A stretch of 46,788 nt of DNA from Spirulina sp. (GTDB lineage: Bacteria > Cyanobacteriota > Cyanobacteriia > Phormidesmidales > Phormidesmidaceae). The notes under the pieces were generated by a model. That model did not search any database and had not been told where the DNA came from. It saw only the letters and a program-made list of their open reading frames with translations. This document shows, piece after piece, positions 5,354-45,520 of this stretch; the first letter of the stretch is position 1, and the number at the start of each line of letters is the position of its first letter. Location of the stretch: contig JBIPSI010000038.1 of NCBI GenBank assembly GCA_044070495.1, positions 1 to 46,788 on the forward strand. Reading direction: 5' to 3'. The position numbers and the translations under genes are program-made.

Positions 5354-5520
5354 GCAAGTCCCTGGAGATCCCCCTAAATCCCCCTTAGGAAGGGGGACTT
5401 TGACTCTAGTTCCCCCCTTCTTAAGGGGGACGTTGCTTCCGATTCCCCCCTTCCTAAGGGGGGCTAGGGGGGATCAGTCCCAGGCATCAAGCAACACAAA
5501 AACTTATGTATAAGCAGTAG
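5354..5520 (+). mobile_element. Partial MITE family A (three-hairpin variant) with one IS50/Tn5-like end
   Basis: CCCCCTAAATCCCCCTT..AAGGGGGACTTTGA core as at 45290-45454; end 5502-5520 reads CTACTGCTTATACATAAGT on the minus strand; other end missing. Confidence 0.8.
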
Positions 5521-5550
5521 CCTCGTGGGAGAAGGTCTGAGGGTGAGGGC
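5521..5550. repeat. Half copy of hairpin cassette B abutting the nirA stop codon
   Basis: GGGAGAAGG...GGGTGAGGGC arm, related to 45257-45289 and 45485-45520. Confidence 0.65.
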
Positions 5551-7151
5551 TACTCCATCGTTACCGAGATCTGGCTACCGGAAGCCTCCCCACTGGAGCG
5601 GAGTTGGGCCTGGAAATGTTCCATCAGCAGGGTTTTGAGGACATCGGGCAGATCGTCGCAGGGGATGCCCTGCATGACTTTTTCGCCGAGGTGCGCGTCT
5701 TTGCCAACCTTGCCGCCCATGAAGATGTCTACGCCTTCCGTCATCTTGCCGTCCTTGCGGACTTTGGTGCCCATCAGGCCGATATCCGCCACCTGGGGCT
5801 GGCCGCAGGAGTTGGGGCAGCCCGTCCAGTGGATGCGGACGGGGTTGGACAGAACTAACTCGGCATCCAGGGCTTTGGCGAGCACCTGGGCGCGTTGCTT
5901 GGTTTCCACCAGGGCAAAGTTGCAGAACTGCGCCCCGGTGCAGGACACCAGCGACCGCATCAGGGGCGATGGATCGACGGAGAACTTTTGGAGTAGGGGT
6001 TCCTCTAGCAGCACGGGCAGGCGGTCATCGGGCACGTTGGGGATGATCACGTTTTGCTCCACCGTCAGCCGCAATTCACCATTGCCGTAGACCTCAGAGA
6101 GCCGCGCCAGTTCGTAGAAATCCTCGGCCCACAGGCGACCCACGGGCACATGCAGCCCCACATAGTTCAGCCCCGCCTGCTTTTGGGCATAGACACCGAT
6201 GTGATCGCGCTTGTCCCAGTCCATTTCGTCCTTGGCGGCGGCGGACAAGAGGGGCTGTCCATAGGCCGCTTCTACCTCGGTGCGGAAACGATCTAGGCCC
6301 CATTCATCGATTAGCCACATCAGGCGGGCCTTTTGGCGGTTTGCCCGTGGGCCGTTGTCGCGGTAGACCTCTAGGATGGCGCGGCTGAGGGCAACCACGC
6401 TGACATCGGCGGGCACCCAGGCGTTGAGGGGAATGGCGGGTTCGCAGCGACGGGCGGAAAAGAAGCCCCCCACCAGCACGTTGAAGCCCAGCACTCCCTC
6501 TCGAAAAGCGGGGACAAAGGCAATATCGTTAATTTCGGCGTGGATGGAGTTGTCTCGCCCGCCTTCGATGGCGATGTTGAATTTGCGGGGCAAATTGCTG
6601 AACTCAGGATTACCCTGGCCATGGCCCGTGATCATATCCTGAACCTTTTGCACTAGTTCCCGTGTGTCGATCAGTTCATCGGCATCCAGCCCAGACACTG
6701 GGGAACCCGTAATGTTTCGTACGTTGTCCATGCCGGACTGCACCGAGGTTAGCCCCGCCGCCTCTAGTTGACTAAAAATATTGGGAATATCCTCTAGCAA
6801 AATGCCGCGCAGTTGAATATTTTGCCGGGTGGTAATGTCGGCGCTGCCGTCTTCACCGTAGCGCTGAATAATGTCTGCCAGGGTGCGCGATTGAAGGCTA
6901 GTCATGACCCCATGGGGTAACCGCAGCCGCAGCATAAACTTGCCGGGAGTAACGGGACGAAAGAAAATCCCCAGCCACTTAAGGCGATGGGTCAAATCGG
7001 TTTCGTCCACGGCTTCCCAGCCAATGTTGGCAAAGTGCTCTAAATCGTTTTTGACCAGCAAGCCGTCCTTTTCCGCCTTGAGCTTCTCAAACTTGTTCAG
7101 CTTTGCGCTAGGGGCTTCGCTAGTCCTATCCATAGAAATGGTCACAGGCAC
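5550..7151 (-). CDS. nirA: Ferredoxin-nitrite reductase
   Basis: LNKFEKLKAEKDGL, TTRQNIQLRG, NLPRKFNIAI, CTGAQFCN and HWTGCPNSCGQ siroheme/4Fe-4S ligands; start could be GTG 7151, GTG 7145 or ATG 7133. Confidence 0.97.
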   Translation of the reverse strand: MPVTISMDRTSEAPSAKLNKFEKLKAEKDGLLVKNDLEHFANIGWEAVDETDLTHRLKWLGIFFRPVTPGKFMLRLRLPHGVMTSLQSRTLADIIQRYGEDGSADITTRQNIQLRGILLEDIPNIFSQLEAAGLTSVQSGMDNVRNITGSPVSGLDADELIDTRELVQKVQDMITGHGQGNPEFSNLPRKFNIAIEGGRDNSIHAEINDIAFVPAFREGVLGFNVLVGGFFSARRCEPAIPLNAWVPADVSVVALSRAILEVYRDNGPRANRQKARLMWLIDEWGLDRFRTEVEAAYGQPLLSAAAKDEMDWDKRDHIGVYAQKQAGLNYVGLHVPVGRLWAEDFYELARLSEVYGNGELRLTVEQNVIIPNVPDDRLPVLLEEPLLQKFSVDPSPLMRSLVSCTGAQFCNFALVETKQRAQVLAKALDAELVLSNPVRIHWTGCPNSCGQPQVADIGLMGTKVRKDGKMTEGVDIFMGGKVGKDAHLGEKVMQGIPCDDLPDVLKTLLMEHFQAQLRSSGEASGSQISVTME

Positions 7152-7446
7152 ACCGCCTTAAAAAACAATCAACGACACAACAAAAATCCGTCAGCACAAG
7201 ATCTGAAAACCTAGACTTTTATAGCGATTTCTAGTGAGATTAAGTCGAGGGAATGATGAAACACCTGGTTTATGGAGATAACCTTAACGAGATGAGATTT
7301 ACTACTTGGAGAATTGCCACATCGATCCATCAAGGGTTGCACACAATTTCAGTTGAACTTAGGCAAATCACAAAGATGTCAGTTCAATACGAGAATTTTG
7401 CATCCTTAGAGAACGACTTAAACCCATTGTTTGAGCCAGCGTAATT

Positions 7447-7489
7447 ACCATAAACGGCGTATTTCCAAAGGTTTTGTATCTCTTAATAC
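7447..7489 (-). promoter_or_regulatory. Class II NtcA-activated promoter for nirA-narB
   Basis: Perfect GTA-N8-TAC at 7476-7489; 23 nt downstream on the minus strand is TATGGT (TAN3T -10 box, 7447-7452). Confidence 0.88.
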
Positions 7490-7505
7490 GCTTTTAAGCA
7501 ATCCA

Positions 7506-7518
7506 TGCAGGTCATGCA
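7506..7518. promoter_or_regulatory. NtcB (LysR-type, nitrite-responsive) binding site
   Basis: TGCA-N5-TGCA centred about 29.5 bp upstream of the NtcA box centre, the known arrangement at nirA promoters. Confidence 0.8.
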
Positions 7519-7651
7519 AGACCCAATTGCGCGACTTGCATAGCGGGGTTCCATTATCGGTTATCAATATAAACAAGCGTACTTCGGGCCTTGCCCCGGT
7601 TTTCCTCGCCTAGGGTTCTCCGCCTGATGGGTATCCCGATCAGAACTTTGA

Positions 7652-8827
7652 ATGACGACGTATCCCATGCCGATAGGGAGAAAGGCTTTGCTAGATTTCG
7701 TTGACCCCTCGGCTTCGTCCCAGGTAGATTTTCCAGCCAGGACTGACCTCGAACCTCCATCCACCACCGCTCGCCGTTTCCAGGACGGGATGGATTTGCG
7801 GCAGGGCAGTTTTGCGGATCGGTGGGAGGTGGCCAAGCGGATTCCCCAGAGAGGGGAGGCCGCCCTGGCTGACCTAATTGCGATGGTGAGGGATGAAACG
7901 CTGACCTGGGAAACGCGCTGGCTTGCGGCCCGCAGCCTTGGAAGTTTTGACCACCCAGCGGCGATTGCGGCCCTGATGACCGCCCTGGGCACTGCCGATG
8001 AGGATTTACAGGAGGCCATTCTCGACGCCCTCTGCCACATTGGCCCCAGCGCCATCCAGTCTCTCAGTGATCTGGTGGCTGAACCAACCTACCAAGCCGT
8101 CGCTATCGAGGCCCTCACCCGCATTCCCCACCCCGCCACCCAGGCCCCCCTGGTCACCGCCGTTGACCTCACGACCGGAGCGACCCAGGCCAAGGTGATC
8201 GAAGCCCTGGGCCAGTTTGCCGACCTCGCCCTGCTGCCGATTTTTACCGAGGCGGTTCAGAACCGGGCTTCATCGGTGCGGCTGGCGGCGCTGCAAGGGT
8301 TAATTCGCCTCAGAACCCAGGTGGATGAGTCGCACTGGACGGCCTGGATTCAGCCGTTGACGGAGGATGTGAATCCGGCGGTGGCCCAGCGGGCGATCCA
8401 TGCCCTCGGACGCACCACCAACCTCGCCGCCACCCAGACCCTCCAAGGGTTACTAGCAGCGACTCATACCCCAGAAAGCCTCAAAATCGCCGCCGCCCAA
8501 GCCCTGGCTTGGCAGGGCACCGTCGCCGCCCTGGCGGTATTGATTGATGCCTGGGACACCTTGGGCCAAAACGTGCGGATCGCTTTAGTACAAGGGCTTT
8601 CCCAGATCAGCCACCCCAATCTAAAAGCGGAGATGATCGCCCCCGTGCAGCGATGGCTGAACGGTCTTCCGGCGACGACGGAATACAGTCTGCTGCGCCG
8701 CAATTTAGTCATGCTGCTGGGACAGGTGGGCGGCGATTCTGTGATTCCGCTTCTGCAAACCCTCCGCCAGGATGCCGATACAGGGATTCGCTTCCATGCC
8801 GAAGCCGCCCTGCGATCCGTGTCCTAG
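7652..8827 (+). CDS. nirB: HEAT/PBS-lyase repeat protein, NirB-like nitrite reductase accessory factor
   Basis: Repeated HEAT units (RWLAARSLG, VRLAALQGL, IRFHAEAAL), FADRWEVAKRIP motif, divergent from nirA as is typical of nirB. Confidence 0.72.
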   Translation: MTTYPMPIGRKALLDFVDPSASSQVDFPARTDLEPPSTTARRFQDGMDLRQGSFADRWEVAKRIPQRGEAALADLIAMVRDETLTWETRWLAARSLGSFDHPAAIAALMTALGTADEDLQEAILDALCHIGPSAIQSLSDLVAEPTYQAVAIEALTRIPHPATQAPLVTAVDLTTGATQAKVIEALGQFADLALLPIFTEAVQNRASSVRLAALQGLIRLRTQVDESHWTAWIQPLTEDVNPAVAQRAIHALGRTTNLAATQTLQGLLAATHTPESLKIAAAQALAWQGTVAALAVLIDAWDTLGQNVRIALVQGLSQISHPNLKAEMIAPVQRWLNGLPATTEYSLLRRNLVMLLGQVGGDSVIPLLQTLRQDADTGIRFHAEAALRSVS

Positions 8828-8853
8828 ATATCTGTGTCCTAGGCATCTGTCTC

Positions 8854-9495
8854 CTAGACAACGGGGACGCTGCGATTTTCTGGGAGGTTTTCGGTCAGGC
8901 CCGCATGGTGAAGCACGAAGTCCACCACGGTATCCAGACCTTCACGGGTTTTGAGGTTGGTAAAGCCAAAGGGACGGCTACCGCGCATGGTGCGGGCATC
9001 GCGATCCATCACCTCCAGGCTGGCCCCTACCATGGGGGCAAGGTCAATTTTGTTGATCACCAAAAAGTCTGACTTGGTGATGCCGGGGCCACCCTTGCGG
9101 GGAATTTTGTCGCCAGCGGCCACGTCGATGACGTAGAGGGTGAGATCCACCAGTTCGGGGCTGAAGGTGCTGGCCAGGTTGTCGCCGCCGCTTTCCACAA
9201 ACACCAGGTCTAGGGGGTCGAAGCGGGCCTCTAGATCCTCAATGGCCACCAGGTTCATGGAGGCGTCTTCGCGGATGGCGGTGTGGGGACAGCCCCCCGT
9301 TTCCACGCCCACAATGCGATCTGGGGCCAGGGCTTGGCTGCGAACCAGGAACTGGGCATCTTCCTGGGTATAGATGTCGTTGGTGACCACCGCAATGGAG
9401 AAATCCTCCCGCAGCCGTTTGCACAGGTTATCCACTAGGGCGGTTTTCCCAGAACCCACCGGGCCAGCCACACCCACACGAAAGGGAGTTGTCAT
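8854..9495 (-). CDS. ureG: Urease accessory GTPase
   Basis: [12 protein letters not shown]-loop, [36 protein letters not shown]; start ATG 9495, alternatives up to 9540. Confidence 0.96.
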
Positions 9496-9582
9496 GGTTG
9501 CATTATCCAGGGTTGCGTTGCTTGCCATCATACCGCGCACTCCAAGGGTCGGGACGAGGCCCTAAAGGATGCCCTGAAACGC

Positions 9583-9966
9583 CTAGGGACGGCTGAGGTT
9601 GCAGGAAAAGACCTCGGCGCTGGGTTGAGCCTGGAGGGTCTGCTCCATTTGGGCGGCGCTAAAACGGCCAAAAGTACTCAGGGCGCTGACCTCCTCCGGG
9701 GTGGGGATGGTGTCGGCCACCACGGGGCCAAGGTCGCTGACGTAGATGACTTGGTCAATGCGCAGGCGACCCTGGCGGTGCTGTTCGTAGAGGGCGGCAT
9801 AGTCGGCGGCGATGGGTTGCCACTGGTCGGGGGCGCAGTAGCTGCGGTCGATGATCACCGTTACGGTGGAGCGGGCGAACCCCTGCCGCAGGCCCAAGCC
9901 TAGGCCCAAAAAGGCCAACCAGCCTAGGCCGAGGGTGATCAGGAGGCGGAGGTTGGGGTTACGCAT
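9583..9966 (-). CDS. Small membrane-anchored protein with degenerate VWA-like start (VTVIIDRSYC), 127 aa
   Basis: ATG 9966, N-terminal TM segment; the longer ORF-track start runs through a tandem repeat. Confidence 0.75.
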   Translation of the reverse strand: MRNPNLRLLITLGLGWLAFLGLGLGLRQGFARSTVTVIIDRSYCAPDQWQPIAADYAALYEQHRQGRLRIDQVIYVSDLGPVVADTIPTPEEVSALSTFGRFSAAQMEQTLQAQPSAEVFSCNLSRP

Positions 9967-9968
9967 GG

Positions 9969-10000
9969 GGTGGGGAGGTGGGGAGGTGGGGAGGTGGGGA
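9969..10000. repeat. Short tandem repeat (GGTGGGGA)x4
   Basis: Four exact octamers directly upstream of the ATG at 9966. Confidence 0.9.
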
Positions 10001-10006
10001 GGTGAG

Positions 10007-10030
10007 GTAGGGGCGATGTGCCCTCGCCCT
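10007..10030 (+). repeat. GTAG-class REP (GTAG-GGGCGA-N7-TCGCCC)
   Basis: GTAG plus hairpin, related to the REP at 18974. Confidence 0.65.
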
Positions 10031-10058
10031 AAGGTGTCGGAAGTCGGAACGTCCAAGG

Positions 10059-11810
10059 CTATAGATTGACTTGGAAGAGGTCTTTGAAGAGACTTTGAAC
10101 GTTGTCGGGGTTGCCTTGTTGCACGGTGGATTCCCGCAGGCTGGCGATGGCTTGGAGTTCGCTTTGATCCACTTCACCGTAGGCAATGGGGTAGAAGCGC
10201 ACATCGCTGTAGGCCATGATGTCCTTCACGGCGTCGAACTTAAAGCCTCGGTTGACGTCGCCATCGGTGAGCAGCAGCAGGTAGAAGCGTCCGGTGGGGT
10301 CGGCGGCTTGTTTCTCCATCAGGTCGGCCAAGCCCACCATCACCCCGTCGTACATGGCCGTTGATCCATCGGCCCGCAGGCTGTCTACGGTGGCCAAAAA
10401 GCGCTGGTGCTGGATCTGATCAAAGGGGGCTAGGGGCAGGCGGCGCACGGGGTCATCGTCAAAGGTGACAATGCTGACATAGTTGCCGGGGTTGATCTGT
10501 CCGGCGGCGATGCGTAGGCCATCCTGGACGGCCTGCATTCGTGCCCCTTCCATGGATCCGCTGGTGTCGATCACCAGGGTCATATAAACCGTGCGGCCCC
10601 CGTCCTTCCGCAACTTCCAGTTCGACTGGGCCGCCAGCAGCACATCCCCCGCTGGGTTGGGGGGAAACTCCCCCGCCTTGAGGTAATCGGTTTCCACAAA
10701 GCCCTGCTGGGCGGCGAGGGCCTGCATGTCGGGCGACAGGGCAAAGGTCGAAAACCGTTCTAGGGCGGCTTGCTGCTGGGGCGTATTCCAGCCAAAGCCC
10801 ACCAGGGGGTTGTTGTGGGGGATGCCAAAGGGCACAAATTCGGTGTTTTCAAACCCTGGCACCTGGCGCAGGGCAAGGTAGTTTTGGTACTCCAGGGGGA
10901 AGGCTTGCAGCTTGGACTGATCCCGCAAAAAGAGTTCCTGGAGATCGAGGGTGGTGGGGGTGGTGATGAGCACCTGGGACTGAAACTGGTCGAACACAGA
11001 GTTGACCTGGGGGGTTTGAAGTTCCGCCACGGTTAAGGGGTTGTTGCTCTGCTGATGTCCGGCAGCTCGCCAGTAGAGGGTATAGAGCAGGTTGAGGGCG
11101 GTGGAACTGGAGTAGGGGTTGGGATAGGCCACGGTGATTTGCTCGGAGGCGATGGCGGCCAGCAGGCGATCAAAGCTGACGGTACCGTTTTCGGCAAGCT
11201 GGTCGTAAACCGCCTTGGGCAGCACCCAGCCAGCGGTGTTAGGCACCAGGCGGGGGGCCACCGGGGTCACGGGCACGCCCTCGCTTTCGATCATCGCTAC
11301 CCACAGGTCGTTGGAGGGGCTATAGCCCTGGGGTTGGGCGGTTCCAGCCCCCAGCATCCGCGCCGCCGTCCCGGAAGCCACCTGGCGCACTCCCACCTGA
11401 ATCACTTCCCCAGAGGGCAGGGTTTCCTGGCGTTGGTTAAAGGCTTCGGCCACCTCCACCAGCCAGCGCTCGTTTTGGCGGTTGACGTTGGCCTTCTCCG
11501 AGGAGCTAAAAATCTCGATATAGACCGTGTTGCCGCCACTGGGCTGCGCCCCATAGAGGGGAAACTCCTCGGTGCGGGGAATCGGCTCGGCAATTTGATC
11601 CGTGGCATAGCGGGCGGCGACCTCGTCGGACACGACCTCATCGGTGAGGTTAATTTTGGGCAGCACCGAGTTCACTAAAGCCGCCTGGGCACTTTCCGGG
11701 GAATCAATGGCGCTTCCCCCCGGAAACCCACCAGGGCCACAGTTCCACAGGAAAACAGCACAAAGACCGAGGAGAAAAGCCAGGAGAGGGCGACGACGGA
11801 GGTAACGCAT
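10059..11810 (-). CDS. Lipoprotein with solute-binding-protein-like domain and C-terminal VWA domain
   Basis: MRYLRRRP..LWNC lipoprotein-type signal, NPYSSSTALN SBP-like motif, MIDAS DTSGS, T in GSTAMYD, LLTDG. Confidence 0.88.
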   Translation of the reverse strand: MRYLRRRPLLAFLLGLCAVFLWNCGPGGFPGGSAIDSPESAQAALVNSVLPKINLTDEVVSDEVAARYATDQIAEPIPRTEEFPLYGAQPSGGNTVYIEIFSSSEKANVNRQNERWLVEVAEAFNQRQETLPSGEVIQVGVRQVASGTAARMLGAGTAQPQGYSPSNDLWVAMIESEGVPVTPVAPRLVPNTAGWVLPKAVYDQLAENGTVSFDRLLAAIASEQITVAYPNPYSSSTALNLLYTLYWRAAGHQQSNNPLTVAELQTPQVNSVFDQFQSQVLITTPTTLDLQELFLRDQSKLQAFPLEYQNYLALRQVPGFENTEFVPFGIPHNNPLVGFGWNTPQQQAALERFSTFALSPDMQALAAQQGFVETDYLKAGEFPPNPAGDVLLAAQSNWKLRKDGGRTVYMTLVIDTSGSMEGARMQAVQDGLRIAAGQINPGNYVSIVTFDDDPVRRLPLAPFDQIQHQRFLATVDSLRADGSTAMYDGVMVGLADLMEKQAADPTGRFYLLLLTDGDVNRGFKFDAVKDIMAYSDVRFYPIAYGEVDQSELQAIASLRESTVQQGNPDNVQSLFKDLFQVNL

Positions 11811-11812
11811 AG

Positions 11813-11946
11813 GACAGGTGACAGGTGACAGGTGAAGGGTGGACAGGTGAAGGGGTGACAGGTGGACAGGTGACAGGTGAAGGGGTGACAGGTGAAGGGG
11901 TGATAGGTGGACAGGTGACAGGTGAAGGGTGGACAGGTGAAGGGTG
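11813..11946. repeat. STRR-like tandem array, 18 units of 7-8 nt (ACAGGTG / GACAGGTG / AAGGGTG / AAGGGGTG)
   Basis: Counted directly; mostly 7+8 pairs giving a 15-nt period; abuts the VWA gene start. Confidence 0.92.
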
Positions 11947-12103
11947 AAAGGGAAGGGGGGCTGGGTGAGGGGTTGGGATTGGCGTAGGGTGCATAACGCC
12001 AGGGCGAGGCTGACGCCAACGCGAAGCAATGCACCGATCCAGAACAGCACCAATCAAGAACATCGCCAAGGTCAGCCACCTTCAGGATGGTTAACACCGT
12101 GTC

Positions 12104-12751
12104 CTAGGTTGGTGGCGCGTCTTCCAAAATATGTTTGTTGGCGACGATCAGGGTTTGTAGGCCCTTGGGCAAGTCTCCGGTGGGGGTGTCGTTATCGAGG
12201 CTGGCCAGGGCCACTTGGTCTTGCAACTGTTGCAGTTGGTCGTGGGTGTCTCGCAGGCGTTCCCGGCTGGCCTCAATGCGCTGCTGAGTAAGCTGGCGAT
12301 AGGTGGGAGTTTCGATCTGGGGGATCACCGCCAAGCCCTCGGCTACCTGTTTAGAAAGCGCCATCACCGTATGCAGGGCTTCCAGGAGTTCCACCTGAAG
12401 CATGGGTTCGCGGTCGTAAATGCGGTCGGCAAAACGTTGGGAGGCGGTGGCCCAGGCTAGGGATTCTTTCCAGATGGCCTGACTAGCGGTGGGCACCCGT
12501 TTGCCCAGTGGCTCAATCTGACCGAGAAACACCTCTGCTTCTAGGAGGTCGCCACTGGGTTCGGCCTCAGCCTGACGCCGACAGCCCGCCGCCCAACTGC
12601 CCACCATGGCCACCGAGATGCCGCCGCCGCCGAGAATAGCCATGGGTTTTGGCCCCGCCAACCACAGTAAGGCTCCATAGCCCAGGGCCGTACCCAGCAG
12701 TAATAGATAGGTCTGGGGCTGGTTCCAGCCGTTTAACCGTTGTGTGGCCAT
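12104..12751 (-). CDS. Membrane-anchored helical/coiled-coil protein (XpaC-like topology)
   Basis: Two N-terminal TM segments then a long helical region; first gene of the VWA module. Confidence 0.75.
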   Translation of the reverse strand: MATQRLNGWNQPQTYLLLLGTALGYGALLWLAGPKPMAILGGGGISVAMVGSWAAGCRRQAEAEPSGDLLEAEVFLGQIEPLGKRVPTASQAIWKESLAWATASQRFADRIYDREPMLQVELLEALHTVMALSKQVAEGLAVIPQIETPTYRQLTQQRIEASRERLRDTHDQLQQLQDQVALASLDNDTPTGDLPKGLQTLIVANKHILEDAPPT

Positions 12752-12826
12752 GCCGAATCTCCCTCACGTCTTGCCTAGGCGAGTCTCCCTGCCGCCGTTT
12801 ACCCTAATTTAGGGTAAGGCATGGGG

Positions 12827-19297: not shown

Positions 19298-19388
19298 ACC
19301 ATGCTCTGGAAAGATCCCCCCAGCCCCCTTGCAAAGGGGGACTTTGACTCCGATTCCCCCTTTGCAAGGGGGATTTAGGGGGATCCCC
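19268..19388 (-). mobile_element. Partial MITE family A overlapping the kinase 3' end
   Basis: End CTACTAGGTACACAC at 19268 and double-hairpin core at 19312-19388; second end missing. Confidence 0.75.
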
Positions 19389-19416
19389 AGAATATTGCTA
19401 ACAGAGGAGAAAACCC

Positions 19417-32904: not shown

Positions 32905-33073
32905 CAGTAGATCACAAACGAGCTCCTTTGCCACAATCCAGCCCACCCTTACGGGAAGCAAGCTACGCCCTAAATCCCTCTCCCCAAGGGAGAGGGACTT
33001 TGAAGACCGTTTCCGGCTCCCCTCTCCTCGTGGGAGAGGGGTTGGGGGTGGGGGTGGGCTTTGCGATCTACTG
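32905..33073 (+). mobile_element. 169-bp MITE with ISH3-like ends carrying hairpin cassette B
   Basis: CAGTAGATCACAAA ... TTTGCGATCTACTG (13/14 inverted repeat) around CCCTAAATCCCTCTCCC..GGGAGAGGGACTTTGA..CCCCTCTCC..GGAGAGGGG. Confidence 0.82.
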
Positions 33074-37691: not shown

Positions 37692-37892
37692 ATGAAAATC
37701 AAAGCTGTAATTTGGCAAGAAGATGGCGTTTGGTGTGGCTCTGTACCTGCTTTGCCAGGATGCCATACTTGGGGAGAAAGCTACGACCATTTGCTGGAGA
37801 TGCTGGAAGAGGCGATTCAAGGCTGGTTAGATGTTGCTAGTCAGAAAGATGATATTGAACCTGAAAAACAGCTTGTTGAACTGTCTCTATGA
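37692..37892 (+). CDS. hicB: HicB-family antitoxin (short form)
   Basis: VPALPGCHTWGES....EMLEEAIQGWL. Confidence 0.9.
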   Translation: MKIKAVIWQEDGVWCGSVPALPGCHTWGESYDHLLEMLEEAIQGWLDVASQKDDIEPEKQLVELSL

Positions 37893-38095
37893 AATCCGTA
37901 TCGGGCAAAGCCTTCTGTAAAATTCTTGAACGCCACGGCTGGATTTTGAAGCGGGTAACTGGCAGTCATCACATTTATATAAAAAAGGGGGTTGACTGCA
38001 TCTTGTCTATTCCAGTTCATAGTAGCCGAGATTTGCCTATAGGTCTGTTAAGAAAACTGCTGAAGGATGCAGGCTTAACCGAAGAAAACCTTTAA
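37889..38095 (+). CDS. hicA: HicA-family mRNA interferase toxin
   Basis: LERHGW..KRVTGSHHIY, IPVH, DLPIGLLRKLLKDAGL; ATGA overlap with hicB. Confidence 0.92.
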   Translation: MKSVSGKAFCKILERHGWILKRVTGSHHIYIKKGVDCILSIPVHSSRDLPIGLLRKLLKDAGLTEENL

Positions 38096-38153
38096 ACTAT
38101 TGATTTTGTGACTCTATTGAGAGGCAGAGAAATTCAGACAAAGGAGTAAACCC

Positions 38154-38366
38154 ATGAAAACCTATTATCCGCTCTTTTCTAAAGTTTCCTTAGCTGAAGA
38201 TTTGCCAGAACATCATCTTAAACGTGGAGATGTTGGCACCATCGTCGAGCATTACCCTATGCCCGACGATGAAGAGGATGGCTATAGCTTAGAAGGTTTT
38301 GGGGTGCCAAACATAACTATTGAAGTTTCAGTCTCACAAATTATTTCTGTGAAGCAATGGCAGTTA
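38154..38366 (+). pseudogene. DUF4926-family protein interrupted by IS5
   Basis: VSLAEDLPEHHLKRGDVGTIVE..GYSLE; reading frame enters the IS after codon 71. Confidence 0.72.
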
Positions 38367-39288
38367 GAGCTGATTTCTAAACCAAATCTTAAGCCGCCGC
38401 TCGCTTCAACATGAGTCGAATGAGCGCACCGTAAATCATCGCTTCACTGAACTCCGTGTAGACCTCGTAATCCTTACTCAGCCGTCGATAGCGATTCAAC
38501 CAGCCAAACGTCCGCTCAACAATCCATCGCTTGGGGAGCACCTCAAATGTCTTAGCGTTCCGCTTAATCACTTCGACTCGAACCTGCTCACCACAGACCT
38601 CACGAATGGCACGGGCAAAGTGCTCTCCAGAGTAGCCCTGGTCAACATAGACCACCTCCAACGCCGAAAGCCGCTCATGAATGGACTCAAAAACGACAAC
38701 GGTCCCTAAGCGTTCTGACATGTTGGCCTCAGTCACGAGCACGCCGAGAACGAATCCTTGGGAATCGACGACGATAGGTTGCTTACGGCCCTTAACCTTC
38801 TTGCCACCATCAAAGCCGTAGACCTCCCCCTTTTTTCCGTCGTCTTCACCGATTGTGAGTCAGCGATAGCGACGCTAGAGTCTGGGTCTCGATTCATCCC
38901 TTCCCGAAGGTCTTGCCTCAGGTCATCGTGCAAGGCTTGCCAAATGCCTTTGCGCTGCCATTTCCGAAAGTACTTGTACACCGTGGTGTGCGGAGGAAAG
39001 TCGTGGGGTAGCATTTCCCATTGACAACCACTGCGCTGTACATAGAAGATCGCGTTAAGGATTTCCCTGAAATCAACCTCCCGTGGGCGTCCAAACCCCT
39101 TTGGTGAGGGCAACTTGGGCTCAATCAGAGCCCACTCTGCATCGCTCATGTCACTTGGGTAGAGTGCGCGGGTAGGGTTGGCGACAGTGGGCAGCTTGCT
39201 CATGATTCTGAAGCCTAGCGACACCTCTAGCCTAAAAACCCATCCCCTACCATCCCCTCAATTTTAGGTTTTCTTTAGAAATTAGCTC
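38367..39288 (-). mobile_element. IS5-family insertion sequence (IS1031-like), 922 bp
   Basis: 15-bp TIRs GAGCTGATTTCTAAA / TTTAGAAATTAGCTC (1 mismatch); TTA on both flanks (38364-66, 39289-91). Confidence 0.93.
38389..39203 (-). CDS. IS5 transposase split over two frames, probable -1 frameshift
   Basis: YPSDMSDAEW, GCQWEMLPHDFP, DSQSVKT; AAAAAAG at about 38830-38836; second frame GFDGGKKVKGRK, DQGY, RWIVERTFGWL. Confidence 0.88.
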
Positions 39289-39392
39289 TTAAAAAAGGCA
39301 GGTCTAACATGATTGCACCCAAAGCCCGAGACAAATTCTGGATTGCGGCTATCGCTGGTGTCATTCTGCTGACTCCTAATCCCGGCTTGGCC

Positions 39393-40364
39393 TCACCGTC
39401 GTTTTAACGTTTGGGAGGGGGATTCGCCGAACAGTTGTTTGTAATCTTTAGAGAAGTGGCCCAGGCTAAAGAATCCCCATTGGTGGGCAATCTGAGCTAC
39501 GGTTTCGGGTTTGGGATCCGCGTAGAGCAAAGCTCGCCGAATGCCGTGGAGGCGTTGTACCTTCACAAAGGCCATTGGCCCCATTCCCAACATGTCTTGA
39601 AATCCGTATTGCAGGGATCGCTGGCTGATGCAAACCGCCTGACAAATTTGGGCCAGGGTCAGGGGTTGATCTAGGTTCTCCATGATGTACGCCTTGGCCG
39701 TAGACACTAGGTCTGCTCGACGGTAGGAACGGGGGGCCTTGGCTTGATGGGCCGGAGGCAGAGCATCGATCAACAGTGGCATTAAGTCTTGTTCCAGCAG
39801 GGTAGCCGCTTGGGGTGTCTGCCCCCAAACCTGGATTGCTCCGGCCTGAAAAAGTTGGCGGAGATAGGCACAAAGGGGAGAAAACCGATCAAGCGTCGGT
39901 ACTACTATATTGCGCTGGAGGAATACCTCATCTAAGTCGTAGCGGTGAGCGAGGGCGGCATAGTGTTGAAAGACGGCCTTGGACACATCAATTTTGCATT
40001 GATCCTGACCATCTGGGGAGGTAATAAGATGTACAGGACGCTCAATGTCAAAACCAAAAATTGCGTTGGCCACCAGGGGGCGATCACGGGCGAAGGCAGG
40101 TCGTGCTGGTGTGTTTAGGAGAACGACAAATCTGAAGCGATCAGGCCGTTTGTCATTGATGACCTGGAGCGATTGGCTAGCCTGCTGCCGGGTCACACTC
40201 AGGCTAGGGCTTATCATCCAAGCAGCCAAACACCCTTGAAAAGCACCCCGACTAAGCTGGGTCACCTGGAAGCCACTAGCGGCAAGGGCTTCACCAAAGT
40301 GATCCACATCATTGAAAGTGGCCTCTAGATACCTAGGCCGATCAGTCGCTGGCGGTTCATGCAT
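39393..40364 (-). CDS. AraC-family transcriptional regulator (EutR-like)
   Basis: TQLSRGAFQG N-terminus, SQRSLQYGFQDMLGMGP, WGFFSLGHFSKDYKQLFGESPS. Confidence 0.93.
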   Translation of the reverse strand: MHEPPATDRPRYLEATFNDVDHFGEALAASGFQVTQLSRGAFQGCLAAWMISPSLSVTRQQASQSLQVINDKRPDRFRFVVLLNTPARPAFARDRPLVANAIFGFDIERPVHLITSPDGQDQCKIDVSKAVFQHYAALAHRYDLDEVFLQRNIVVPTLDRFSPLCAYLRQLFQAGAIQVWGQTPQAATLLEQDLMPLLIDALPPAHQAKAPRSYRRADLVSTAKAYIMENLDQPLTLAQICQAVCISQRSLQYGFQDMLGMGPMAFVKVQRLHGIRRALLYADPKPETVAQIAHQWGFFSLGHFSKDYKQLFGESPSQTLKRR

Positions 40365-40380
40365 TCCTCATCTCACAGCG

Positions 40381-40518
40381 GTAGGGGCTGGTTGACTGAC
40401 AAAACTTGCTAGAACCCATATCTGTCAGAGGGTCAGGAGACCTGAACCCTACATGAAAACAATACTGTAGGGGAGCAGTTTTCGCGCCCGACGCAGAAGC
40501 TTTTGTCAGTCAGCCAGC
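40381..40518. repeat. Long GTAG-initiated inverted repeat enclosing two back-to-back REPs
   Basis: Arms GCTGGTTGACTGACAAAA (40387-40404) and TTTTGTCAGTCAGCCAGC (40501-40518); internal REPs end at 40452 (minus) and start at 40467 (plus). Confidence 0.72.
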
Positions 40519-40569
40519 GGTGGGGGCATCATTATGATTCAGAATATCATTTAGTGTTAGGTAGTACTG

Positions 40570-40850
40570 TAGCGGTTCTCGGTTTAATGAGGTACAAGTT
40601 TTAGGGCTTCGGATCCCCCTAATTCTATCGGTAGTAGATTTACCTGCCCCCTTTTGCCTAAGGGATAGCTTAAAAAGGGGGGAACCGGATTCAAAGTCCC
40701 CCTTTTTATAGACGCTTGCGGCTTTCCGCAGGGTAGGGGGATTTAGGGGGATCTCCAAGGACTTGCGGCATGAAAGCAAGATTTGTGTACTTAGTAGCCC
40801 TTCTGGGTGAGGGCCAAATCAGGGCAGTAGAGCAAGTTTGTGATCTACTG
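40570..40850 (-). mobile_element. Composite repeat stack: degenerate MITE A with micro-insertions, cassette B fragment and an ISH3-like end
   Basis: Family A core 40612-40755, end TGTGTACTTAGTAG at 40784-40797, GGGTGAGGGC at 40805-40814, TTTGTGATCTACTG at 40837-40850. Confidence 0.75.
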
Positions 40851-40881
40851 AGGCTGAGCAGCCGCCCAAAGGCCTGGCCAT

Positions 40882-41364
40882 TTAACCTTGAAACCACCCA
40901 GCTAAGGCTAGGGCCAGGGCGTCGGCGGCATCGTCGGGACGCGGAATTTTGTCGAGGCTGAGCTCGCGGGCTACGGCCTCTTGCACTTCGGCCTTGTCGG
41001 CATTGCCGTAGCCGGTCAGGGCTTGCTTGACCTGGGCGGGGGTAAATTCCGTTAGCGGCAACTGGTGTTGGGCCAGCACCAGCATCACCACACCTCGCGC
41101 CTGGGCCACCAAAATGGTATTGCCCATGCGGTAAAAGAAGAATTTTTCGATGACGACTGAATCGGGCTGGAATTGATCGATCAGGCTATGGAGGTCGTCG
41201 TAAATTGTGCAAAGACGCTCCCCGACCGGGGTTTTGGCCGGGGTGGAAATGACGCCAAAATCAATCACCGTAACGCCCGACTCGGCCTCCTGGGTAGGGG
41301 TATCTATCACCCCAAAGCCCAAGGTGGCCAAGCCAGGATCAATGCCCAGAATGCGGGTCGTCAC
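40882..41364 (-). CDS. ruvC: Holliday junction resolvase
   Basis: [40 protein letters not shown]. Confidence 0.96.
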
Positions 41365-41374
41365 CGGGTCTAGA

Positions 41375-42478
41375 CTATCTCACCCCAGCGGGTTGGCGAC
41401 CGTTGGCCATGGCTTCGTCGGGATCGGCGAGGCCAAACACCTTACAGAACACCTTTTCCACCTTAAAGCCAGAGTCGATACTCTCCAGGGGATCCTTGCG
41501 TAGGCGGTGGCGCAGGCAGAGGACGATCACCCGCCGGATATCGTCTTGGGTGACTTCGGTGCGGCCTTCGTAGGCGGCGATGGCCTTGGCGGCGCGGTTG
41601 GTGACAATGTCTCCCCGCAGACCGTCCACGTCTAGCTCGGCGCAGACCTCAGAAATGCGCACCCGGTCTTCGTACTCTAGGGTGACGGAGGGCAGGCGCT
41701 TTTGGGCTTCCACGAGGCGGGCCTGAAGCTCGGTTTGCTTAGCCTCGTGCTGGGCCAGGTAGCCAGCGGGGTCTTGGTCAAAGGCGGAACGCTGTTCCAC
41801 GATTTCCACCCGCAGTTCGGGGTTGCGCACGGTGCGAATTTCGGCGTGCATGCCAAAGCGGTCGAGCAGTTGGGGACGCAGTTCCCCTTCTTCGGGGTTA
41901 CCGGAACCCACCAGCACAAACTGGGCCGGGTGGCGAATGGAGATGCCTTCGCGCTCCACGGTGTTCCAACCGGAGGCGGCGGAGTCGAGCAGGACATCCA
42001 CCAGGTGATCGTCCAACAGGTTAACTTCATCCACGTAGAGGATGCCCCGGTTGGCCTTGGCCAGCAGACCCGGTTCAAAGGCTTTCACCCCTTCGGAGAG
42101 GGCTTTTTCGATGTCGATGGTGCCGCAGACCCGGTCTTCGGTGGCCCCTAGGGGCAGGTCTACCATGGGCACCTTTTTGGCGGCGATAGGCAGATCCGTG
42201 GTGCCCCGCTCGGCAATCACATCGGGATCCTGCGGCGACCGACTGAAGGGATCGTCGGCTACCACTTCGATTTCGGGCAGCAGGTCGGCCAGGGCGCGAA
42301 TGGTGGTGGATTTGCCCGTACCTCGGTCGCCCATGATCATCACCCCGCCAATTTTGGGGTCAATGACGTTGAGCAGCAGGGCCAGCTTCATGTCGTCTTG
42401 GCCAATGACGGCGGTGAAGGGAAAAACCGCCCGCCGAGGCGCAGGGGAGGATTGGGATGGGGCAGCAGTAGAACTCAC
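41375..42478 (-). CDS. chlI: Magnesium chelatase ATPase subunit I
   Basis: [59 protein letters not shown]. Confidence 0.97.
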
Positions 42479-42581
42479 TGGCGTTTCTAAGGATTACGGC
42501 ACAACAAAAGTAGACTATCGTTCATTGTGCCATAGCGGAGTAGTGCATTCGCGCAGCAATGCACCCACGGGACGGTTGGAG

Positions 42582-42747
42582 CTACTGTGTACACATCAGT
42601 CCTTAACGTAGACGATACAGGGGATCGATCCCCCCTAGCCCCCCTTGAAAAGGGGGGGAATCAGATTCAAAGTCCCCCTTTTCAAGGGGGATTTAGGGGG
42701 ATCTCCAAGGACTTGCAGCCTGAAAGCAAGATGTGTGTACTTAGTAG
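42582..42747 (-). mobile_element. Complete MITE family A, 166 bp
   Basis: Near-identical reverse complement of 45290-45454; flanks GGACGGTTGGAG / GGACGGTTGAG form an imperfect target duplication. Confidence 0.9.
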
Positions 42748-42766
42748 GGACGGTTGAGTGAAGGGA

Positions 42767-44317
42767 TTATCCACGAATCACAGTGATTTGCCGACCGCTG
42801 GGGGTTTGGGCCTGCTCAGTGGTGGTGCGTTCGGCGATGGGGGGCAGATCCGGGCGTTGGTCGAAGATGACCAGCCAGCCGCTATCGAGGCCCAGTCCGG
42901 CGAGGTAGCGGTCGATTTGTTCTAACCCTGCTTGGATGGGGTCGGGGCGTCCCGGTCGCCACACTTTAAGTTCAATGCCCAGGGTGACATCGCCGTAGCG
43001 CAGGCAGAGATCCATGCGGTCGGAGCCGATGGCGTATTCCCGTTCGAGGGTGCCGCCGCCGTTGATGACGCGATGCAAAAAGGCCATCATCACCAGGTGG
43101 GGGGCAATTTCGTGGTAGGGCGCACTTTTGAGCAAGGGCTGCCCATGCTGCCGCCAAAAGCTGAGGAAGGACGTGAGCAGTTTGTCCGGGTCTAGGGTTC
43201 CGGCTGGGGTGAGCCAACGGGGGCTGAACGACGGCAGGCTATCCTGGGGGCCGCTGGCCAATACCCTGGGCAGAACTTCTCGATAGATGGGGTTGGCAGG
43301 GGCGAGTCCTCCAGAGGAGGAGCGGACGACCAGCCCTAAATCCACTAAAAATTGGCGATCATCGCTGGAAACATCACCCAAGGCTTGCCCTGCCAATAGG
43401 GGTTCGATCACAGCCCGCACCCGGTCTTCGCGCAGGATGCTGGCCAGACTATCGAGGTGGGTGTCTTGCCGCTGAATCAGAATTTCCTTGGCGGTGTTGA
43501 CATGGGTGGGGGTGATGGTCTCTGCGGGGTCGGGGACGATCACTTCCACCAATTGGCGGGCCAAGGCATTCACCAACCAGGGTTGCCCTTGGGTAAGGTG
43601 AAACACCCGCTCCACCGCCTCCGGGGAAAAGACCTGCCCGGTTGCGGCGGTGTGCTGCTGATAGAGTGCCGCCACATCCGCCGGGGAAAAATTGCCGAGG
43701 GTAAGGGACTCTATCTTGATGTTGAAGGGGCTGGAGGTATTCAGGCGGGTGCTGCCGCCGGAGGCCACTTTGTAATCCCGCACATCCCGCACACCGATCA
43801 GAGCCAGGGATTGGGGAAACCCCTTGGGACGGTCAGGATAGCCGGAACGCAGTTGACGCAGAAAGGAAATTAAGACCTCATCCTTCAAGACATCAATTTC
43901 ATCAATTAAAATCACCAGCGGCCTGGGGGACATTCTGGCCCAAGTGTGGAGAGCCGCCTGAATTTGCTGTCCGGGGGCGGTTGCTGGCCAGGGGGGCGGT
44001 TGCAAGTCGTGGGGGAGACGGTTCTCGGCCTGATTGCGCCAGGATTGCAACATGGCCCGCTCTGTTTCGGCAATGTCGTTAGGAAATGCAGCCCCCACTT
44101 CGGCGGAGACCATAATGGCGGTGTATTGGCCGCTCTCCGTGAGCTGTTGGGCCAGGGCAAGCATGGCCGTAGTTTTGCCCGTTTGCCGGGGGGCGTGGAT
44201 GACAAAGTAGCCCTGCTGCGCCACCAATCGCTCTAGGTTAGGCAGGCGACCTAGGGGCGGCAACATGTAGTGAAGGTCAGGCTTACAGGGGCCAGCGGTG
44301 TTAAACCATTTGGGCAT
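42767..44317 (-). CDS. AAA-type ATPase with C-terminal PD-(D/E)XK nuclease-like domain, 516 aa
   Basis: FNTAGPC start, APRQTGKTT Walker A, ILIDEID Walker B, TQGQPWLVN, EREY...RMDL...IELK; start ATG 44317. Confidence 0.88.
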   Translation of the reverse strand: MPKWFNTAGPCKPDLHYMLPPLGRLPNLERLVAQQGYFVIHAPRQTGKTTAMLALAQQLTESGQYTAIMVSAEVGAAFPNDIAETERAMLQSWRNQAENRLPHDLQPPPWPATAPGQQIQAALHTWARMSPRPLVILIDEIDVLKDEVLISFLRQLRSGYPDRPKGFPQSLALIGVRDVRDYKVASGGSTRLNTSSPFNIKIESLTLGNFSPADVAALYQQHTAATGQVFSPEAVERVFHLTQGQPWLVNALARQLVEVIVPDPAETITPTHVNTAKEILIQRQDTHLDSLASILREDRVRAVIEPLLAGQALGDVSSDDRQFLVDLGLVVRSSSGGLAPANPIYREVLPRVLASGPQDSLPSFSPRWLTPAGTLDPDKLLTSFLSFWRQHGQPLLKSAPYHEIAPHLVMMAFLHRVINGGGTLEREYAIGSDRMDLCLRYGDVTLGIELKVWRPGRPDPIQAGLEQIDRYLAGLGLDSGWLVIFDQRPDLPPIAERTTTEQAQTPSGRQITVIRG

Positions 44318-44423
44318 GGAGGCTCTAATGCGGCTATCCCCTGAAGTATACCAACCTGGCCATGACCCCCATGACATAATGGAATCACCAAATGGAATCA
44401 CCGAAATCTTGAGGGACTGTGCC

Positions 44424-45218
44424 ATGCAACCTCCTTTGACAGAGCCTGGGGTTGACCCAGAACTGCGGTTGCCTACCTCAGAAGAACTCCCCTGCTCTGA
44501 CGACACCCCTGTGGATAACGAATACCAAAACACGATCCCCAACGGGTTATTAGCCGTACTGGAGCAGATTTGGGGACATCGCCAGGACTGGTTTTTTGGG
44601 GTAGACATGGGCGTTTATGATCGCGAAGCCCAGCGAAACCGTTCTCCTGCTATCATCCCCGACGGATTTCTGAGTGTGGGGGTTCAACGTCACAAACGGG
44701 CAGGCAAAGGGCGTTTGAGCTATGTGCTCCAGGAAGAAAATGGGGTCGTTCCCCTGTTGGCCTTGGAATTTGTGTCCAAAACCTATGGCCAGGAATATGA
44801 CCAGAAGATGACGATCTATGCCCATTTGGGGGTGAAATACTACGTCATTTACAACCCCGAATACAGCCGCAGAAACCGACACCAGCCCTTTGAGGTGTAT
44901 CAACTCGTCAACGGCACCTACCAACTTCAGGGTGGAGAACCGTTCTGGATACCTGAAATCGAATTAGGGATTGGCCGTGTTCAGGGAGAATTGGGCGGCA
45001 TCTTTCAGGAATGGTTGACCTGGCATGATGCCGCAGGCAGACCCTATCCCCTGCCCCAGGAATTGATTCAAAACCTGAAATCTGAGTTAACTCAGGCACG
45101 CCAGCGGGCGGAACAAGAACGCCAGCGGGCGGAACAAATGGAACAGATCCTTGAGCAGGAACGGGTTGAAAAACTACGACTAATGGAACGGCTACGACAG
45201 TTAGAGGGGGAAGGATAA
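44424..45218 (+). CDS. Uma2/DUF820 family protein with C-terminal coiled coil
   Basis: LPTSEELPCSDDTPVDNE, IPDGFLS, LEFVSKT, LGVKYYVIYNP, RAEQERQRAEQ; start ATG 44424. Confidence 0.92.
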   Translation: MQPPLTEPGVDPELRLPTSEELPCSDDTPVDNEYQNTIPNGLLAVLEQIWGHRQDWFFGVDMGVYDREAQRNRSPAIIPDGFLSVGVQRHKRAGKGRLSYVLQEENGVVPLLALEFVSKTYGQEYDQKMTIYAHLGVKYYVIYNPEYSRRNRHQPFEVYQLVNGTYQLQGGEPFWIPEIELGIGRVQGELGGIFQEWLTWHDAAGRPYPLPQELIQNLKSELTQARQRAEQERQRAEQMEQILEQERVEKLRLMERLRQLEGEG

Positions 45219-45256
45219 GCGTAATCCAACCAATAGAGCATCCACGTCCAAGCTTC

Positions 45257-45520
45257 GCCCTCATCCCCCAACCCCTTCTCCCTAGGGAGCTACTAAGTAC
45301 ACACATCTTGCTTTCATACCGCAAGTCCTTGGAGATCCCCCTAAATCCCCCTTAAAAAGGGGGACTTTGACTCCGGTTCCCCCCTTTTTAAGGGGGGCTA
45401 GGGGGGATCGATTCCCTGTATCGTCTACGTTAAGGACTTATGTGTACTTAGTAGCCCTAGGGAGAAGGGGAGCCGGATTCAGAACCCCTCTCCCTCAGGG
45501 AGAGGGACAGGGGTGAGGGC
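45257..45520 (-). repeat. Complete hairpin cassette B interrupted by MITE A
   Basis: Removing 45290-45454 and one CCCTAGGGAG restores the hairpin CCCCTTCTCCC-TA-GGGAGAAGGGG, followed by CCCTCTCCC-TCA-GGGAGAGGG. Confidence 0.85.
45290..45454 (+). mobile_element. Complete MITE family A, 165 bp, with 10-bp target-site duplication
   Basis: Perfect 14-bp TIR CTACTAAGTACACA / TGTGTACTTAGTAG; CCCTAGGGAG at 45280-45289 and 45455-45464. Confidence 0.93.

Follow-up and report, generated by a model that had tools for sequence, protein, structure and literature searches.

We analysed a 46,788-nt stretch of the genome of the cyanobacterium Spirulina sp. (contig JBIPSI010000038.1, hereafter the window), in which a first-pass annotation had noticed two palindromic cassettes, A and B, lying between the ends of different transposons and inside one another. 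Our results suggest that A, B and a third class, C, are probably subfamilies of one repeat resembling repetitive extragenic palindromic (REP) sequences or REP doublets (REPINs), that this repeat forms the core of several families of MITEs (miniature inverted-repeat transposable elements) moved in trans through their terminal inverted repeats (TIRs), and that it is the target of an IS4-like element. The anatomy of the cassettes, the TIRs and target-site duplications (TSDs) of their shells, the ISH3 partner of the B-carrying MITE, the preference for certain targets, the polymorphic insertions, the inversions in place and the unequal conservation of core and shell were observed directly. The system combines known kinds of component, namely a REP-like core, MITEs and hairpin-targeted insertion.

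The window is contig C38 of a 5.31-Mb genome (G000) assembled in 74 contigs, and the assembly is without short repeat contigs. The other G-numbers denote the genomes compared with it, G030 being a genome from another family. Breadth was assessed in 41 relatives (17 genera), in 53 genomes of the genus, and in a phylum-wide draw of 301 genomes.

Cassette classes and the shells that carry them

Direct reading of the sites in the window confirmed cassettes A and B as the first-pass annotation had written them. Cassette A is laid out as GATCCCCC-TAAAT-CCCCCTT-loop-AAGGGGG-ACTTTGA..-CCCCCCTT-loop-AAGGGGGG-CTA-GGGGGGATC, and cassette B as CCCTCACCC-TAAAT-CCCTCTCCC-loop-GGGAGAGGG-ACTTTGA..-CCCCTCTCC-loop-GGAGAGGGG-CTG-GGGGTGAGGG. 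The outer stem, hairpin 1 and hairpin 2 are built around short connectors from one C-rich arm motif and its complement, used six times in all. With at most one mismatch allowed, CCCTAAATCCC occurs 8 times in the window against a shuffle mean of 1.42, and none of 100 shuffles reached 8; GGGACTTTGA also occurs 8 times, against a shuffle mean of 3.46, and 3 of 100 shuffles reached that number. The linkers TAAAT and ACTTTG, which had been described as fixed, are real, but they are complementary to each other and lengthen the stem of hairpin 1. Nor is A best drawn as two separate hairpins: pairing of hairpin 1 with hairpin 2, which gives one long hairpin, is energetically preferred in the single strand (z -4.4 to -7.6). 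The B cassette at 32962-33055 folds as two hairpins within the outer stem (z -4.1).

Genome-wide, the end motifs (at most 2-3 mismatches) were found 116 (LA), 114 (RA), 85 (LB) and 103 (RB) times and pair into 84 A and 49 B cassettes. The cassettes range from 76 to 95 nt in size. Exactly 76 nt was found for 47 A cassettes, and the others measure about 109, 141, 200 or 208 nt; these steps of about 33 nt mean that the longer forms contain extra 33-nt hairpin units. A run of such units occupies 208 nt at G000:C4:17442-17649. The 47 A cassettes differ from one another only in the three nucleotides of the loop and at a small number of sites in the linker. In 25 of the 47 the loop regions of hairpins 1 and 2 are exact reverse complements of each other, and eight loop sequences occur. 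The 157 TAAAT...ACTTTGA intervals of the genome divide into 94 with the A stem, 61 with that of B and 2 with neither, and no further class of stem was seen to accompany these connectors here or in the five other genomes examined. In G030, whole B elements form tandem arrays with about 105-140 nt between them (L018-L021, L040-L042), and in B cassettes of that genome (for example L025:1449-1544) the linker begins with CGTTCTGG, which could pair instead with CCAGAACG on the loop side of hairpin 1, to which it is complementary.

About 13 copies of class C are present in the genome, for example on contigs C1, C7, C10, C14, C15, C17 and C24. They have the architecture of A and B, but CTG stands where A and B have TAAAT, GTTCTGAATCCGG replaces ACTTTGA, and the conserved arms are their own (...CCAGCTTGGATGGTTTACTAATTGG). 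The copy at 45257-45520, previously taken for a B cassette, is of this class, containing neither TAAAT nor ACTTTGA.

The cassettes of the window and the transposon ends associated with them are as follows.

1-138, minus strand: insertion sequence (IS) of the ISH3 family, one end of which lies at the contig edge; TIR CAGTAGATCACAAAG runs inward from 138, and the transposase start codon lies inside
5346-5366, plus strand: remnant of an A-MITE left arm with the TIR itself missing; ...GGCAAGTCCCTGGA resembles the consensus arm ...CCGCAAGTCCTTGGA
5367-5475, plus strand: three-hairpin A cassette of 109 nt, with outer hairpins whose loops (AGG and CCT) are reverse complements
5476-5520, plus strand: A-MITE right arm of the R2 type, ending in TIR ...TATGTATAAGCAGTAG
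5521-5550, plus strand: right half of a B-type hairpin 2 with the outer stem (CCTCGTGGGAGAAGGTCTGAGGGTGAGGGC), the target entered by the A-MITE
19268 to about 19403, plus strand: truncated A-MITE with TIR CTACTAGGTACACA, an R3-type arm and the cassette at 19313-19385, whose central linker is inverted relative to its ends
32905-33073, plus strand: ISH3-type MITE of 169 bp that carries a B cassette; TIRs CAGTAGATCACAAAC... and ...TTTGCGATCTACTG
32962-33055, plus strand: the B cassette, consisting of outer stem, TAAAT, hairpin 1, ACTTTGA linker, hairpin 2 and outer stem
40600-40797, minus strand: degenerate A-MITE; the left-arm TIR ends at 40797, hairpin 2 is disrupted and the far end is uncertain
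40708-40735, minus strand: mini-insertion of 28 nt in the loop of hairpin 1, splitting that hairpin; core of 26 nt, ACCCTGCGGAAAGCCGCAAGCGTCTAT on the minus strand
40798-40850, minus strand: remnant of an ISH3-type B-MITE, with outer stem GCCCTCACCC, arm 1 and the TIR ending at 40850
42582-42747, minus strand: complete A-MITE of 166 bp outside any hairpin, with an imperfect 11-12-nt direct repeat (GGACGGTTGGAG / GGACGGTTGAG) and the cassette at 42627-42703
45257-45289, minus strand: left part of a class-C cassette (outer stem and half a hairpin), ending in the duplicated CCCTAGGGAG
45290-45454, plus strand: complete young A-MITE of 165 bp, with TIR CTACTAAGTACACA, the cassette at 45334-45409 and a 10-bp TSD
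45455-45520, minus strand: remainder of the class-C cassette, with the second CCCTAGGGAG, hairpin arm, linker, hairpin and outer stem
46655-46788, plus strand: the other end of the ISH3-family IS, at the contig edge

The shell of cassette A is a MITE of about 165 bp (the A-MITE) with TIRs of the form CTAC....TAYACA, one left arm and three variants of the right arm. TIR pairs of 159-199 bp number 34 in the genome, and 12 of them lie between perfect direct repeats of 9 bp (3), 10 bp (4) or 11 bp (5). Within 110 nt of the 84 A cassettes, a TIR was found on both sides of 39, on one side of 17 and on neither side of 20, the remaining 8 being at a contig edge. The ends had been called IS50-like. They are true TIRs that may resemble the IS50 outside end; the family label comes from the ends and the 9-11-bp duplications. 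A target duplication of 9 bp is typical of the IS50-like group of the IS4 family. The A-MITE at 19268-~19403, whose cassette (19313-19385) had been regarded as bare, is also an insertion polymorphism: the site is filled in G000 and G067 and empty in G019, G005 and G050. One examined A copy that appears bare has a decayed arm and yet a perfect cassette. A second one does lack arms altogether, and it is found at orthologous positions in four species.

The B-MITE is 154-175 bp long and has TIR CAGTAGATCRCAAA; perfect 5-bp duplications flank 10 of the 15 complete copies. The same TIR bounds an IS that breaks contigs, including both edges of the window, and the B ends at 32905 and 33073 match those of this ISH3-family IS. 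A full copy in the relative G018 (L011 379-1634) is flanked by the duplication ATGCT, and its transposase (L011:537-1619) matched NF033541 with 229.2 bits (cut-off 225, E 5.8e-68), which places the IS in the ISH3 family. The ISH3 family makes target duplications of about 5 bp. The first-pass annotation was therefore right in calling the ends around the B cassette at 32905 ISH3-like. No recognisable TIR was present within 110 nt of 27 of the 49 B cassettes. Identical ISH3-family ends of 134-138 nt, which lie at 1-138 and 46655-46788 in the window, also terminate contigs C1, C34, C39, C48 and C71. The body of this IS is absent from the assembly, and the IS is therefore a cause of contig breaks.

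Further shells enclose the same kind of core. A third shell of about 200 bp with TIR AACCTSAGTTCGGG is represented by nine complete copies with B (for example G000:C2:174894-175092), and this TIR also encloses other hairpin cores (GTAGGTTGGGTG...CACCCAACCTAC). Another cassette shell was found in G030. The shell ends of a copy on a Nostoc plasmid resemble those beside an IS701-family IS of G000, and a copy on a Synechocystis plasmid is bare. The earlier suggestion that one cassette rides in several unrelated shells thus holds for the IS4-like, ISH3 and third TIR types, the G030 shell and the IS701-like shell of the Nostoc plasmid.

Insertion into hairpin tips

The first-pass annotation had proposed that the cassette is a preferred insertion target. 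We compared the surroundings of the 97 A-MITE ends that have at least 24 nt of flank with chance expectation. The C-rich arm of a B-type hairpin was abutted by 65 of the 97 ends, against 1.96 expected (binomial P 2e-85), and an A-type hairpin by 6, against 0.36 expected; the other 26 lay elsewhere. The insertion boundary was 7-9 nt beyond the arm in 57 of the 65 cases, which means that the duplication straddles the tip of the hairpin. The same type of insertion occurs in G030. These results bear out the proposed preference.

All three junctions at which A had been seen to abut or interrupt a B cassette were confirmed, although the target at one of them, 45289/90, is of class C and not B. At this junction the 165-bp A-MITE lies between 10-bp repeats of CCCTAGGGAG (45280-45289 and 45455-45464) across the tip of the hairpin. 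At 5520/21 a truncated A-MITE meets, with its right end, the right half of a B hairpin; at 40797/98 the neighbour of the A-MITE end is the outer stem of a B remnant, which keeps its ISH3-type end at 40850. The preference of the A-MITE for hairpin tips explains the copies found within one another. What had looked like a cassette nested in itself is thus the ordinary target-site preference of the MITE that carries A, and not self-insertion of the cassette.

Some A-MITEs have half a B hairpin on each side, a left half from one hairpin and a right half from the second, and the middle of the B cassette is gone. At an orthologous site, G000 has an intact B, and G067 has an A-MITE between the left half of hairpin 2 and the right half of hairpin 1. 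Such replaced forms may have arisen by two hits in one B cassette followed by deletion between the MITE copies. A rough estimate from about 45 insertions into about 200 hairpins gives about 5 double hits, and 4-5 replaced forms were seen. Some intergenic sites are recurrent targets. Among the orthologues of G000:C9:57951, an A element is present in G000, a B element in G005 (L072), and neither in G067 or G050.

The loops also receive a much smaller insert. A 26-28-nt mini-insertion (ACCCTGCGGGAAGCCGCAAGCGTCTAT) has seven copies in A loops of the genome, five in hairpin 1 and two in hairpin 2, located at 40708-40735 of the window and on contigs C4, C5, C8, C13, C53 and C71. In G019 it is present at a locus where three orthologues are without it. 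It is a tiny mobile insert, like the small dispersed repeats (SDRs) of Nostocaceae, outside that family. Unrelated to the cassettes is an IS5-type element at 38389-39224 of the window (minus strand), with two overlapping open reading frames (ORFs), DUF4096 and then DDE_Tnp_1, probably read through a frameshift.

Change in place, conservation and what maintains the core

Comparison of orthologous loci revealed that the palindrome changes without moving. A loop reads TGCCA in G000 and G067 and TGGCA in G005. The linker of the copy at 19313-19385 is opposite to that in G067; this copy is the only one of 85 A cassettes in which the linker is discordant with the ends, and no such case was found among 45 B cassettes. 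In G019 the whole B interior between the outer stems is inverted. The number of hairpins also differs between orthologues (2 versus 3). Among subfamilies of the ISH3-type MITE the cassette occurs in both orientations relative to the arms, which inversion of the whole B interior explains.

Within one and the same copy, the core is better maintained than the shell. This was measured as the mean divergence from the consensus per column, and the older A-MITEs were picked by their TIRs only.

Older A-MITEs (n=15): arms 0.176 and 0.218; cassette 0.062, confined to loops and linker
Young A-MITEs (n=15): arms 0.041 and 0.050; cassette 0.029
TIR3 shell (n=7): arms 0.207 and 0.212; cassette 0.135
ISH3-type subfamily 1 (n=3): arms 0.145 and 0.152; cassette 0.091
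ISH3-type subfamily 2 (n=4): arms 0.250 and 0.283; cassette 0.047

The split halves of B cassettes, which are no longer able to pair, remain near the consensus. Of 155 hairpin-1 stems in the genome, 127 are perfect, and only 1 of the 28 changed stems is compensated. These two observations suggest homogenisation among the roughly 200 copies rather than selection for pairing.

The core is far more widespread than its shells. The pattern of hairpin 1 plus connectors was found in 26 of the 41 relatives (10 of 17 genera). In the phylum-wide draw it was present in 54 of 301 genomes, with counts above 100 in the richest; all the positive genomes belong to the class of the window, which contributed 128 genomes, and the 173 from other classes had none. 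The left TIR of the A-MITE was present in only 8 of the 53 genomes of the genus. Twenty cyanobacterial plasmid records match the query, in its cassette part alone; their sources include Nostoc, Pseudanabaena, Synechocystis, Anabaena and Leptolyngbya. None of the 15 matches listed has an annotated feature under the cassette.

On the reading we favour, DDE transposases would move the MITEs in trans through the TIRs and not through the cassette, an IS4-like enzyme moving the A-MITEs with 9-11-bp duplications and an ISH3-family enzyme the B-MITEs with 5-bp duplications. The IS4-like element inserts by preference across the tips of cassette hairpins, so that A-MITEs accumulate in B, C and A hairpins, and two hits in one B with deletion between the MITE copies would leave a B cassette with a MITE for its middle. 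The palindrome flips its loops, linker and interior in place and gains or loses 33-nt units. Its stems and connectors are held near the consensus while arms and target duplications decay, with template switching or gene conversion among the roughly 200 copies presumably the main cause of this conservation. Capture of an abundant palindrome as filler would account for its presence in unrelated shells.

Several results weigh against this reading. No intermediate of capture as filler was observed. An autonomous partner of the A-MITE was not found in the assembly, in plasmids or in two scans of genome contigs, TIR pairs of 906-3272 bp not having been examined as IS candidates; the two scans gave 2 and 1 stretches, both MITE-like. 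The DDE genes that were found belong to other ISs, whose ends differ from the A-MITE TIRs. No IS4-family transposase was found beside these TIRs, and NF033592 gave only weak matches elsewhere; a search with PF02281 gave no match, but its control gave none either, and so it is uninformative. Because the partner was not found, the label IS4-like derives solely from the ends and the duplications. One orthologous copy, in G067, decays at about the rate of its flanks, which implies that homogenisation is not uniform. Stems and connectors are equal in different families whose shells differ. Gene conversion inside one genome is not enough to account for this, which requires that the cassette be under selection or have spread horizontally. 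Persistence without a shell is common, 20 of the 84 A and 27 of the 49 B cassettes being without a TIR and two bare copies being orthologous in four species.

These points have to be set against other explanations. The cassette could be a host-level REP-like element under purifying selection (a protein site, a cruciform or supercoiling element, or a stabiliser of mRNA 3' ends) which the MITEs picked up and the IS uses as a safe landing pad. We regard this as unlikely, although it accommodates stems and connectors that are near-invariant across the families of the class while shells differ, the stronger conservation of the cassette than of the arms in the same copies, and the bare copies kept at orthologous loci in four species. 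By a crude ORF call most copies are intergenic and few lie between divergent genes (A 6/69, B 8/43), which also agrees with a host element. Weak support comes from an RNA library. No public run contains this organism's locus, and the four runs compared gave only cassette-sized pieces; RNA-seq contigs of 1.3-9.9 kb from another organism contain A-type cassettes (query 19324-19390 of the window). These contigs are compatible with co-transcription and no proof of transcription, DNA carry-over being possible. On the other side, the split B halves stay near the consensus although they cannot pair, and in certain genomes stem mismatches are predominantly uncompensated (GGGCGAGGG in G026 and G030 is an example). 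The cassettes show no preferred orientation with respect to neighbouring genes (18 A copies in the same and 28 in the opposite direction, P 0.18; for B, 13 and 8, P 0.38), and they contain no T tract of an intrinsic terminator. Cassette counts range from 0 to more than 100 per genome within one genus, as expected of selfish DNA.

That the cassette is itself mobile or recruited appears quite improbable to us. Here a dedicated enzyme, HUH/Y1-like or other, would handle it as folded single-stranded DNA, and the cassette would either enter any MITE family or act as a hinge required in cis for synapsis of the ends. The occurrence of one core in at least five unrelated shells, and of different hairpin cores within the shell with TIR AACCTSAGTTCGGG, speaks for such a module, as do its status as the most conserved part of the MITEs, its two orientations within the same ISH3-type arms, and the conserved connectors, unpaired or bulged, that adjoin paired stems of two sequence classes; the 26-nt mini-element, which inserts alone into cassette loops, shows that very small insertions do occur in the system. 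But the change of orientation is explained by inversion in place, which was observed directly. At six orthologous loci no insertion polymorphism of the cassette alone was found, the polymorphic copies bearing arms or decayed arms. The only two Y1 genes of the genome, which are RAYT-like (REP-associated tyrosine transposase) and lie at G000:C16:82534-82704 and G000:C3:236416-236727, are both interrupted, with no cassette within 6 kb of either, and across the 41 genomes Y1 counts do not follow cassette counts. We therefore rejected a RAYT/REPIN link. What interrupts one of these genes is an insert that contains a small ORF and heptamer repeats of TTCAAAG; in the other it is a hairpin repeat of the GTAGGTTGGGTG type. 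A link to IS200/IS605 (palindrome-associated transposable elements, PATEs) was also rejected, since the genome has no TnpB and the mobile copies have TIRs and TSDs; two Y1 fragments adjacent to cassettes in G031, which looked like an association, stem from an IS200-like copy that received a MITE and was later duplicated. No association of the cassettes with RAYT, TnpA or TnpB was found, and no candidate for a cassette-specific recognition protein emerged.

Covariation, which the first-pass annotation had named as a check of its structured single-stranded DNA or RNA module, is nearly absent as well. The genome gives the single compensated stem mentioned above, and RNAalifold on 27 B cassettes from several genomes found a change on both sides in 1 of 32 pairs, with a covariation term of -0.33 of -39.36 kcal/mol. 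The MAFFT alignment of these 27 sequences misaligns hairpin 2 between genome types, its columns not being structure-aware there, and therefore the formal pair counts understate pairing in hairpin 2; by eye, compensated and uncompensated variants of this hairpin are both present. Rfam 15 gave no match in the window, and permissive settings gave only sub-threshold hairpin-like matches (best 30.1 bits, threshold 87). With almost no covariation, no Rfam family, no orientation bias and no link to Y1 or TnpB, the claim that the module has recognition signals of its own and a function as structured single-stranded DNA or RNA is not upheld.

A further explanation, tentative and in our judgement doubtful, is that the cassette is a self-standing, cruciform-forming core which unrelated DDE transposons, among them IS4-like, ISH3 and IS701-like ones, require in cis or profit from strongly, for example as a hinge by which elements of about 160 bp join their ends, and that it attracts insertions to its tips. 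It would then be kept by selection on mobility or by a cassette-specific protein, and not by descent of one transposon family, and core and shells would make up a self-reinforcing, class-wide repeat ecosystem. The usual view of MITEs is that the TIRs matter and the inside is filler; here the inside is conserved and widespread, the ends are interchangeable, and the inside is also a landing pad. Should mobility depend on the core, or a protein bind it, the cassettes would reveal how transposons of such small size achieve synapsis of their ends, or a new system of repeat recognition. The more ordinary reading that we favour, a REP-like repeat carried in MITEs, would still explain many contig breaks and small rearrangements in cyanobacterial assemblies, and it too yields an unannotated repeat of class-wide distribution. 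In either case palindrome flip-flop, hairpin-targeted insertion and concerted evolution can be studied on the cassettes in a natural setting.

Comparison with known systems

Literature searches with motif strings and keywords, subscription journals being beyond reach, gave no description of a shared, conserved, class-wide palindromic core that doubles as a landing pad. Parts of the system have parallels elsewhere. BOX elements of Streptococcus pneumoniae are modular repeats in which one module occurs in variable number, and chloroplast DNA undergoes minute inversions associated with hairpins. The variable number of the 33-nt hairpin unit (76, 109, 141, 208 nt) is reminiscent of the former, and the flipping of loops and spacers between inverted repeats of the latter. 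The organisms and sequences are different, and here three nested levels of inversion occur in one element that is the core of a transposon.

The SDRs of Nostocaceae, which Elhai et al. are said to have described in 2008, are reportedly 21-27 nt long. SDRs are tiny repeats located inside other repeats in Nostocaceae (PMC3116915, PMC5861425), and PMC5861425, citing earlier work, states that SDR-like repeats were not found outside this family. The 26-nt mini-insertion in the cassette loops behaves like an SDR. The cassette itself, unlike an SDR, is 76-95 nt long and occurs far outside Nostocaceae, in 54 of 128 genomes of the class.

Cyanobacteria commonly contain MITEs with stable hairpins, and Nezha and MaeMITE are cyanobacterial MITEs (PMC3184786). 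Like other bacterial MITEs as described there, the elements studied here share TIRs with an IS, generate target duplications, are noncoding, have a stable predicted hairpin and occupy sites that are filled in some genomes and empty in others. They differ in that the internal core, and not the TIR, is conserved and widespread, and in that this core is common to shells with unrelated TIRs and different duplication lengths.

REPINs are inverted REP doublets (PMC3116915; for REPIN/RAYT also PMC6006769). The resemblance is that two inverted palindromic units form one long hairpin, with A loops that are reverse-complementary in 25 of 47 copies. In contrast to the REPIN/RAYT system, no cassette flanks a Y1 gene, and mobility was seen here only via DDE-type TIRs and duplications.

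A further parallel is that of REP sequences and bacterial interspersed mosaic elements (BIMEs) with the ISs that target them, including IS1397, IS621 and IS1594 of Anabaena (PMC3184786; also cited in PMC3116915). Both there and here, short GC-rich extragenic palindromes are present in high copy number and an IS-type element inserts into them specifically. The cassette carries no GTAG/CGTC tag and has no RAYT neighbour. Here, unlike in the REP/BIME case, the inserter, a MITE of 165 bp, has IS4-like ends and contains a related palindrome of its own, and the targeted palindromes are at the same time the cores of other MITEs.

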